32,000 nt of DNA, from the NCBI RefSeq assembly GCF_000015805.1, contig NC_009073.1:1920001-1952000 (forward strand), written 5' to 3'. Under the pieces are notes generated by a model. That model worked only from the letters and a program-made list of their open reading frames with translations, had not been told where the DNA came from and ran no database searches. This DNA comes from Pyrobaculum calidifontis JCM 11548 (GTDB lineage: Archaea; Thermoproteota; Thermoprotei; Thermoproteales; Thermoproteaceae). Of this stretch, positions 8,355-24,536 are shown piece by piece (position 1 is the stretch's first letter; each line of letters begins with the position of its first letter). A program made the translations under genes and the position numbers.

Positions 8355-9188
8355 CTAGGTGATGTGGTCGGGCTTGTAGATGTCTATTCTGACTTTGTAA
8401 ACTCCTGGAGCGTAGTCTCGTACGATTCTCCTGTTTATTACTATGCAGTTTGGACACACGTCGCGGACTATTGCCTCAGCTTCTGCAAACGGCGCCTCTT
8501 CTCGGCCAGTGTGGTAGAAGTGTACGACGCCTCCGCCGTCTAGACACTCTAGGGCTAGGGGGAGGTACCTATACGCGCCTAGGGGGAGCGTTAGGAGAAC
8601 TCTGTCAAATTTCCCCCTGAGAAGCGGCGCAACTGTCGCAACGTCGCCGTGGATGCCCACCGCGTTTTTCACCTTGTTTATTCTAAAGTTCTCCACCATG
8701 TACTTGAACCCCCAGGGGTTGAGCTCCACTGCCACAATTAGCCTGGGCTTTGCCAATTTGGCTATTGCAATGGCGTACGGCGCCACTCCGGCAAATAGGT
8801 AGAGCACTCTCTCGCCCTCTTTCACCATCTTCGCCACGTCTAGTCTATCTGTCTGATCTCTAGAGGAGAAGTAGACCTTGGTGGGGTCCACCTTTATGTA
8901 GTACCCGTGTTCCTTGTGTAAAACCTCCGTAGGACCCTCAACCAGTACTTCAAACTCGTAGAGCCTATATTCGCCTCTCCTCCCACCCAGCTTTCTCAAA
9001 ACTGCGCGTACGTGTTTATTCATCTGTGTAATCGCCTTGGCTATTACGTGTTTGTACTCCTCTAGCTCTGGGGGGATCTCTACCACCGCCACGGCGCCGC
9101 TCCGGGAGCCTATTATCTCAAATGAGGTAGGCACCTTGTCGAGTAGCTCCGGGGGAATTGCCCCAGCGACTCTTTCCTTAAGCGACAT
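8355..9188 (-). CDS. trm5: tRNA (guanine37-N1)-methyltransferase, Trm5/Taw22 family (Met-10+ like)
   Basis: SAM-binding segment ERVLYLFAGVAPYAIAIA and VELNPWGFKYMVENFRINKV. The N-terminal EIIGSRSGAVAVVEIP and overall length are typical of archaeal Trm5. Confidence 0.8.
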   Translation of the reverse strand: MSLKERVAGAIPPELLDKVPTSFEIIGSRSGAVAVVEIPPELEEYKHVIAKAITQMNKHVRAVLRKLGGRRGEYRLYEFEVLVEGPTEVLHKEHGYYIKVDPTKVYFSSRDQTDRLDVAKMVKEGERVLYLFAGVAPYAIAIAKLAKPRLIVAVELNPWGFKYMVENFRINKVKNAVGIHGDVATVAPLLRGKFDRVLLTLPLGAYRYLPLALECLDGGGVVHFYHTGREEAPFAEAEAIVRDVCPNCIVINRRIVRDYAPGVYKVRIDIYKPDHIT

Positions 9189-9214
9189 GCGTCACACATG
9201 TGGGGTGAGATGTA

Positions 9215-9264
9215 TCAGTCCCTGACCCACTCGTCACATTGTCAGAAGGGTAAGTTGTCTTCAT
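9215..9264 (-). ncRNA. C/D box sRNA candidate (2'-O-methylation guide)
   Basis: Minus strand reads AUGAAGA-CAACUUACCCUU-CUGA-CAAU-GUGACGA-GUGGGUCAGGGA-CUGA, i.e. C box, 12 nt, D' box, 4 nt, C' box, 12 nt, D box. Both C-type boxes differ from RUGAUGA only at position 5. An A/T box lies about 26 nt upstream. Confidence 0.65.
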
Positions 9265-9277
9265 TAAATATATAAAC
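9263..9277 (+). promoter_or_regulatory. radA TATA box
   Basis: ATTAAATATATAAAC, about 26 nt upstream of GTG 9297. Confidence 0.6.
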
Positions 9278-9288
9278 ACTCACAGGGG

Positions 9289-9296
9289 TTTAAAAC
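9289..9296 (-). promoter_or_regulatory. candidate TATA box of the C/D sRNA
   Basis: Minus strand reads GTTTTAAA, about 26 nt upstream of the sRNA 5' end (~9266). It crosses the radA TATA, as at the other close divergent pairs. Confidence 0.4.
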
Positions 9297-10295
9297 GTGT
9301 CTACTAGGAAAAAGAAGGCGGATGCCGAGGTGGCACAGGCGGCTACTGTCGCGGCTAGCCCAGATATCGACGTGGAGGAGCTCGAGGGCATTGGACGTGT
9401 CACTGGGGCCAAGCTGAAGGAGAAGGGGTACTACACTGTGAGAGACGTGGCCTACGCCTCTGTGAAGGAGTTGGCGGAGATCGTCGGTAGTGAGGAGAGA
9501 GCTCAGCAAATTGTGGAAGCGGCGAGGAAAATGCTTGGGCTTCACTCGTTTATCTCGGCTTTGGAGGTGTACGAGAGGAGGAAGAAAATTAGGCGTATTT
9601 CCACCGGCGTGAGAGCACTTGACGAGCTACTCGGCGGCGGCATTGAGACTAGGGCCGTTACTGAGGTGGTGGGCGAGTTTGGCTCGGGGAAGACTCAGCT
9701 GTGCCACCAGCTGGCCGTCATGGTTCAACTGCCAGAGGACAGGGGCGGGCTGGGGGCCAAGGCTATATACATTGACACAGAGAACACCTTCCGGCCAGAG
9801 CGCATTATGCAGATAGCCAAGGCCAGGGGCCTCGACCCAGACCAAGCCCTTAACAACATATTCTACGCCAGGGCGTACAGCGCCGATCACCAAATGGTGC
9901 TAGTGGAGCAGGCCAAGTCGCTGATTAGACAACACAACGTGGCCCTCCTAGTGGTAGACTCAGTAATCGCCCACTTCCGCGCCGAGTTCCCCGGCAGGGA
10001 GAACCTCGCAGAGCGCCAGCAGAAGTTGAATAAGCACATCGCCGACCTCCTCAGGCTGGCCGACGCCTACGACGTAGCCGTCGTTGTCACAAACCAAGTG
10101 ATGGCCCAGCCAGACGTCTTCTTCGGCAACCCGCTGAGGCCAGCGGGCGGGAACATCCTCGCCCACGGCGCCACCTACAGGCTGTGGCTCCGCAAGTCCA
10201 AGGAGAACATCCGCATTGCCAAGATATTCGACTCGCCCTACCACCCAGAGGGAGAGGTTTCGTTCCGCATTACCGAGGAGGGCCTCGTCGACTAG
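9297..10295 (+). CDS. radA: DNA repair and recombination protein RadA
   Basis: HhH segment [17 protein letters not shown] and Walker [10 protein letters not shown]; the full length is RadA/Rad51-like. GTG start lies 26 nt after AAATATATAAAC. Confidence 0.95.
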
Positions 10296-24230: not shown

Positions 24231-24536
24231 GTGATTGACATAGGCAGAGAGTTGCAGGTGGCAATAAACACTGGCAAGGTGATTATAGGGCTTAGGGAAA
24301 CTAAGAAGTCTCTCCTAACTGGCGCGCCGAAGTTGGTAATAATAGCGGCAAATGCCCCCAGGTGGGCTAGAGAAGACATAGAATACTATGCGAAGCTGGC
24401 GGGAGTGCCCATTTTCACATTTCCAGGTTCGAGTATAGAACTGGGCGCCGCGGCGAAGAGGCCTCATAAGATAATGGCACTCGCCGTAGTTGACCCAGGT
24501 CAGAGCGAAATTTTGAAGCTTGTGGAGCATGCCTGA
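24231..24536 (+). CDS. rpl30e: 50S ribosomal protein L30e
   Basis: [32 protein letters not shown] is typical of L30e. Conserved position after rpoA2. Confidence 0.85.

Follow-up and report, generated by a model that had tools for sequence, protein, structure and literature searches.

The 50-nt element found in the spacer between trm5 and radA of Pyrobaculum calidifontis JCM 11548 is almost certainly a genuine archaeal C/D box methylation-guide sRNA, namely the one published as sR112 of this species. It is located on the minus strand, at positions 9215–9264 of the window, i.e. of the whole 32,000-nt stretch analysed (NC_009073.1, positions 1,920,001 to 1,952,000); unless otherwise stated, positions given below are those of the window. 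Dennis et al. 2015 (BMC Genomics 16:632, PMC4644070) report, in Additional file 1, PCAsR112 at 1929264, strand "neg", along with its 50-mer. With 1920001 as the first genome position of the window, the reported coordinate corresponds to window position 9264: 50-mer, strand and coordinate are all identical to those of the trm5-radA element. The same file gives a read count of 16, a low one, obtained by 454 small-RNA sequencing, and indicates 23S U2183 and 23S G2216 as the predicted targets of the D and D' guide, respectively. Pca sR112 and the element are therefore the same object, with no difference in sequence, strand, coordinate or predicted targets.

This sRNA, with its genomic location and the two predicted targets, has been known since 2015, and the element is an ordinary one, with nothing new in it. 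In Lui et al. 2018 (NAR 46:5678, PMC6009581), the sRNAs of six species, P. calidifontis included, are grouped in 110 families. An initial annotation, made from the DNA letters alone, had proposed a C/D box sRNA candidate in this spacer: the candidate turns out to be the published sR112, found in single copy across the genus.

Architecture of the element

Read on the minus strand from 9264 to 9215, the element is composed of a C box, a 12-nt guide, a D' box, a 4-nt linker, a C' box, a second 12-nt guide and a D box, 50 nt in total; the corresponding letters are ATGAAGA / CAACTTACCCTT / CTGA / CAAT / GTGACGA / GTGGGTCAGGGA / CTGA, exactly as parsed in the initial annotation. The C box AUGAAGA (9258–9264) is followed by the D' guide CAACUUACCCUU (9246–9257), the D' box CUGA (9242–9245), the linker CAAU (9238–9241), the C' box GUGACGA (9231–9237), the D guide GUGGGUCAGGGA (9219–9230) and the D box CUGA (9215–9218), all on the minus strand; the C' and D boxes are identified both by their sequence and by the alignment of relatives. 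The boxes thus succeed one another as C, D', C' and D, with the internal CUGA and GUGACGA 4 nt apart and their columns conserved in 15 homologues, and both guide spacers have the 12-nt length expected of an archaeal C/D box sRNA.

The terminal boxes, AUGAAGA and CUGA, have what a kink-turn based on tandem G-A pairs requires. In the C box the G-A dinucleotides are intact, while position 5 is an A, a possible pairing partner for U2 of the D box; the 3b-3n position of the kink-turn, a variable one, is an A-U in P. calidifontis. Lui et al. 2018 (PMC6009581) note that Pyrobaculum, compared with Pyrococcus, has more variable boxes and less canonical kink-turns, which accounts for the deviation of the C-type boxes at position 5.

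The element is flanked by two genes. Downstream, and outside of the sRNA, lies trm5 (TRM5/TYW2 methyltransferase; 8355–9188, minus strand); on the other side lies the divergent radA (Rad51 family; 9297–10295, plus strand), starting with a GTG at 9297. No ORF covers the element.

Occurrence of the motif and similarity to known families

The frequency of the motif was evaluated with a relaxed pattern, RTGANGA-N12-CTGA-N3-6-NTGANGA-N12-CTGA. In the whole genome (2,009,313 bp) the pattern is matched only once, at the sRNA site; no match was found in five genomes simulated by a first-order Markov model, and by our own arithmetic about 1e-4 matches per genome are expected. The arrangement of the C/D motifs is not due to chance.

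When the whole window was searched against Rfam, no family was found at gathering score. A permissive search returned sub-threshold, box-driven matches to the C/D families sR12 (RF01147), sR17 (RF01144) and sR5 (RF01304), delimiting the region 9214–9267; the covariance-model check suggested along with the candidate gave no family assignment. Box order and spacing of the three models align with the sRNA along the full model length. Their scores range from 10 to 16 bits, versus gathering thresholds of 36–40 (for sR12, 16.4 bits versus 38), and their guides are unrelated, indicating that the sRNA is not a member of any of them. A match to the CRISPR-DR66 model in the promoter region (9259–9296, minus strand; 19 bits, E 0.63) is not accompanied by a repeat array, and was treated as a chance match.

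Conservation among relatives

A sequence-only covariance model, R1, was built from 14 homologues; the P. calidifontis element scores 53.9 bits. R1 identifies one copy in each of the 18 genus genomes out of 18 searched, and partial matches in 8 of the 9 genomes from the sister genus. When the spacer is compared by BLAST to distant members of the genus, the conserved segment is the 50-nt block itself. A further check suggested in the initial annotation, based on orthologous spacers, shows that boxes and D-guide core are conserved, while guide ends and linker vary.

In the two alignments produced, A1 and A2, no variation affects the T, the G and the terminal GA of the C-type boxes, C and C', or the CxGA columns of both D-type boxes, D' included; position 4 of the C box is a G instead of an A in 2 of 15 sequences. 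In the D-guide core, GGGTCAGGG is invariant in A1/A2, and GGGUCAGGG in 19 genomes. The linker (3–5 nt in relatives), the guide ends and the flanks drift. Guide spacers are 12 nt long in most of the 19 parsed homologues: in G021 the length is 11 nt, and the degenerate D' guide of G001 may be parsed as either 10 or 13 nt. At the 3b-3n position of the kink-turns, 18 out of 34 cases are canonical or G-U pairs, and none is U-U; the chance rate, about 37%, is not clearly exceeded.

The order radA-sRNA-trm5 is maintained in 13 of 15 homologues. The sRNA persists also where radA (G013) or trm5 (G009) is no longer adjacent.

Probable promoters and relation to trm5

An A/T box, GTTTTAAA, is located at 9289–9296 on the minus strand, about 28 nt upstream of the C box, where it abuts the start codon of radA; it is likely to be the TATA element of the sRNA promoter. 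In nearly all relatives an equivalent box is found, about 27–30 nt upstream of the C box. A second A/T box, AAATATATAAA, at approximately 9266–9276 on the plus strand, is located about 26 nt upstream of the GTG and is likely to be the TATA element of a leaderless radA; its TATATA is conserved in relatives. Since this second box falls between the first one and the 5' end of the sRNA, the two divergent promoters interleave, and the promoter geometry given in the initial annotation is correct.

The stretch of 26 nt separating the D box from the trm5 ATG (9189–9214, minus strand), which carries UACAUCUC and TACATCTCACC, lacks both a T-run and a clear TATA box; the earlier remark that trm5 lacks a convincing TATA was correct for P. 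calidifontis. On this ground, sRNA and trm5 might constitute, in this species, a single transcription unit, with trm5 read through from the sRNA promoter and the sRNA cut out of its 5' leader. Such an arrangement is possible, if somewhat less than probable. It is consistent with the trm5 ATG adjoining the D box, without any gap, in the relative G001, and with Lui et al. 2018 (PMC6009581), where sRNAs co-transcribed with downstream genes are described, both in that study and in work cited there. Yet 14 of the 19 examined genomes carry a T-run/TATA box directly after the D box, 23–31 nt before the trm5 start, which is the geometry of a leaderless trm5 having its own TATA box; moreover, in P. calidifontis itself a GATACAT occurs at the place expected for the TATA, and may be a weak promoter. 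The frequency of the T-run/TATA box indicates that a coupling of sRNA and trm5 is not ancestral; nor, as judged from these sequences, would any such coupling be conserved in the family. The further suggestion of a functional link between a guide RNA and a tRNA methyltransferase finds no support beyond the adjacency of the two genes.

In most relatives a T-run or A/T box, for example TTTTTATAAA or TTTTAAAAAC, adjoins the D box (L004, L006, L008–L012, L016, L018, L027–L030), and could serve both as terminator of the sRNA and as TATA box of the leaderless trm5. In G005 and G002 the gap between D box and trm5 measures 89 nt, with no obvious box directly after the D box. In G001 (L007:1494–1551), what remains of the D' guide is a decayed, A-rich sequence that lacks complementarity to helix 71; the body of this sRNA may now act as promoter or leader of trm5.

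Predicted targets in 23S rRNA

Targets were searched on intron-free rRNA; a site had to offer 9 or more consecutive pairs, with no more than one G-U among them, and Watson-Crick pairing five positions from the box. Exactly one rRNA site was found for each guide, with 33 nt between the two. Among 1500 shuffled guide pairs, only 5 did as well. For the D guide, the predicted target is ACUCUGACCCUC (5'-3'), in the helix 69 loop, with a U at N+5: guide positions 2–10 pair, one of them by G-U, with CUCUGACCC. For the D' guide, it is CCGGGUAAGUUC (5'-3'), in helix 71, where 9 Watson-Crick pairs are formed with GGGUAAGUU of the spliced 23S rRNA and N+5 is the third G; guide positions 1–2 and 12 are unpaired.

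The two sites, which we take to be equivalent to E. coli U1917 (D guide, helix 69 loop) and G1950 (D' guide, helix 71), are the published ones. E. coli A1912 corresponds to A2178 in the numbering of Dennis et al. 2015 (PMC4644070): counting from the latter, the sites of the scan are U2183 and G2216. The scan, independent of the published target table, led to the same two sites. A tentative D' target in 23S domain IV, GGGUAAGUU, had already been put forward in the initial annotation, and corresponds to the published G2216, though it was found here only after intron removal; the D-guide target was absent from that annotation, and emerged from the scan.

For a single guide, and with G-U pairs freely allowed, 48–75% of shuffled guides reach a run of 9 pairs. 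Single matches of this length being common by chance, the assignment of the targets is based on the proximity of the two sites and on their conservation in the family. The D-guide pairing to helix 69 is maintained in all of the 15 homologues examined; that of the D' guide to helix 71 in 13 of 15, having been lost in G001 and G021. In five relatives an A-A mismatch at position 7 of the D' guide is offset by extra pairs at positions 1–2.

The guide search according to the N+5 rule, also suggested beforehand, was positive for 23S rRNA, with one 9-pair site per guide, and negative for tRNA: no comparable site is present in the 31 tRNA genes found, an incomplete set, since some tRNAs with introns escape both aragorn and the Rfam model. 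A tRNA target considered for the D guide, the T-arm/acceptor-like UCCCUGACCC, was rejected, no such site occurring in these 31 genes. An alternative site for the D' guide, at position 1547 of the genomic 23S sequence, was set aside because it needs three G-U pairs. Complements of the guides searched throughout the genome gave only noise, mostly within coding DNA.

The region of 23S rRNA equivalent to that of U1917 and G1950 is a hotspot at the subunit interface (Dennis et al. 2015, PMC4644070). Other archaeal dual-guide C/D sRNAs are directed to this hotspot, in helices 68–71: Pca sR33, sR40, sR54 and sR103/109, for example, feature, like sR112, two 12-nt guides, and in all of them, sR112 included, fewer than 100 nt of domain IV separate the two sites. 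The positions targeted differ from those of sR112: the D' guide of sR103/109 is predicted to act at U2181, two nucleotides from the D site of sR112.

An intron splits the D' target

When genomic 16S and 23S sequences were first scanned, the D-guide site was found while the D' site was missed, because an intron splits the latter. The 23S gene of P. calidifontis is 4215 nt long (genome 1725738–1729952) and contains, directly after GGGTAAG, an intron of 553 nt (genome 1728445–1728997), the exon resuming with (G)TTCCGGCGTGCATGAATGG. The splice point falls within target positions 7–9; because of the bases that AAG and TAG, at either end of the intron, have in common, it may be placed from sequence only within this interval. 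An ORF contained in the intron is of the LAGLIDADG type (LAGLIDADG_3, Pfam PF14528, E 9e-19). Among the 18 genomes of the genus the full-length intron is found only in P. calidifontis, with one weak partial match elsewhere. Five relatives carry an uninterrupted CCGGGTAAGTTCCGG, in which the target sequence is identical; this fixes the sequence of the mature 23S rRNA. The published sR112 tables, as examined, carry no comment on the split D' target, nor on the missing TATA box of trm5.

Two other insertions were observed. Compared to the 2987 positions of the model, the 4215-nt 23S gene contains a further 600–700 nt, approximately, of insertion elsewhere, probably another intron. In G006 (contig 9, ~102537–103205) a different insertion or intron, of about 670 nt, is located in the helix 69 loop of 23S, between GGGGGTAA and CTCTGACCC; it adjoins the edge of the sR112 D target, and contains a 225-aa ORF whose translation features LAGLIDADG-like motifs.

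The D' guide of P. calidifontis forms 7 contiguous pairs with the unspliced 23S rRNA, versus 9 with the spliced one. It might be supposed, accordingly, that in this species the guide no longer directs methylation, its helix 71 target being interrupted by the intron, and that it either acts only as a weak folding aid or is on its way to becoming an orphan guide; the unpaired guide positions 1–2 and 12, and the disappearance of the D' pairing in G001 and G021, would fit such a loss. We consider this unlikely: once the rRNA is spliced, all 9 Watson-Crick pairs are intact, N+5 included, the published criteria accept 9 or even 8 pairs, and the guide core is kept in 13 of 15 homologues. The intron may also act in another way: as the D' guide attains its 9 pairs only across the junction of the exons, methylation at the G1950 equivalent would depend on prior splicing of 23S, or the sRNA would compete with the exon-exon helix presenting the splice sites. 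Together with a role of the sRNA promoter in driving trm5, following loss of the T-run/TATA box that lies between the two in relatives, this is advanced only tentatively, as a rather doubtful peculiarity of P. calidifontis.

Proposed mode of action

That the motif is a chance product of a promoter-rich spacer, or else a cis-regulatory leader of trm5 with no separate RNA, is highly improbable: the spacer does carry two interleaved promoters, both C-type boxes differ from RUGAUGA and Rfam provides no above-threshold match, but the pattern is found once genome-wide, the block conserved in distant relatives is exactly the 50 nt, the sRNA is kept away from radA in G013 and from trm5 in G009, small-RNA reads are published, the lengths of the linker indels are not divisible by three, and the element is free of ORFs running over it.

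In an archaeal C/D sRNP, L7Ae binds twice, at the kink-turn of the terminal C/D motif and at the kink-loop of the internal C'/D' motif, and a Nop5 dimer, bridging two fibrillarins, completes the particle; the guide duplex presents for 2'-O-methylation the nucleotide opposite guide position 5. Eukaryotic C/D box snoRNAs share with the archaeal form the set of C/D and C'/D' boxes, the N+5 rule and the fibrillarin-catalysed 2'-O-methylation. The archaeal form differs in being much shorter (50 nt), in its symmetric 12-nt guides, in the binding of L7Ae at both motifs and in a terminal stem which is little developed or absent.

Genes for fibrillarin, Nop5 and L7Ae are present in the genome, the best L7Ae match being at genome positions 425516–425782. 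A second ORF of the L7Ae family (Pfam Ribosomal_L7Ae, 111 aa, 61 bits) is found in the window, at 24246–24515 on the plus strand.

As a separate guide RNA, sR112 would be produced as a minus-strand transcript, starting from an A/T-box promoter of its own (9296–9289), and trimmed to about 50 nt. L7Ae would bind its C/D kink-turn and C'/D' kink-loop, followed by a Nop5 dimer and two copies of fibrillarin, and the two guides are predicted to pair with the 23S domain IV sites, 33 nt apart. The D guide, on the helix 69 loop, would place the ribose of the E. coli U1917 equivalent at the fifth position from the D box, while the D' guide, on helix 71, would likewise place the G1950 equivalent. The predicted outcome is 2'-O-methylation at both positions: a Um in the helix 69 loop and a Gm in helix 71.

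Because both guides bind close together, sR112 may also help the local folding of this subunit-interface region. In Dennis et al. 2015 (PMC4644070) and Lui et al. 2018 (PMC6009581), dual-guide sRNAs directed to the hotspot are seen as combining methylation with assistance to folding, and the folding-chaperone idea proposed there fits the 33-nt spacing of the two sites.

Significance

The finding has little value as a discovery, since the sRNA, its position and both predicted targets were in print in 2015, and the sRNAs of P. calidifontis were curated again in 2018. It shows that a reading of the raw sequence finds real C/D box sRNAs, even when their boxes are not canonical, and that targets have to be sought on spliced rRNA, since the intron makes the D' site invisible on the genomic 23S sequence. 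For the biology of the organism, two minor points are of interest: the order in which rRNA splicing and guided methylation may take place, and the dependence that trm5 may have, in this one species, on the promoter of the sRNA.
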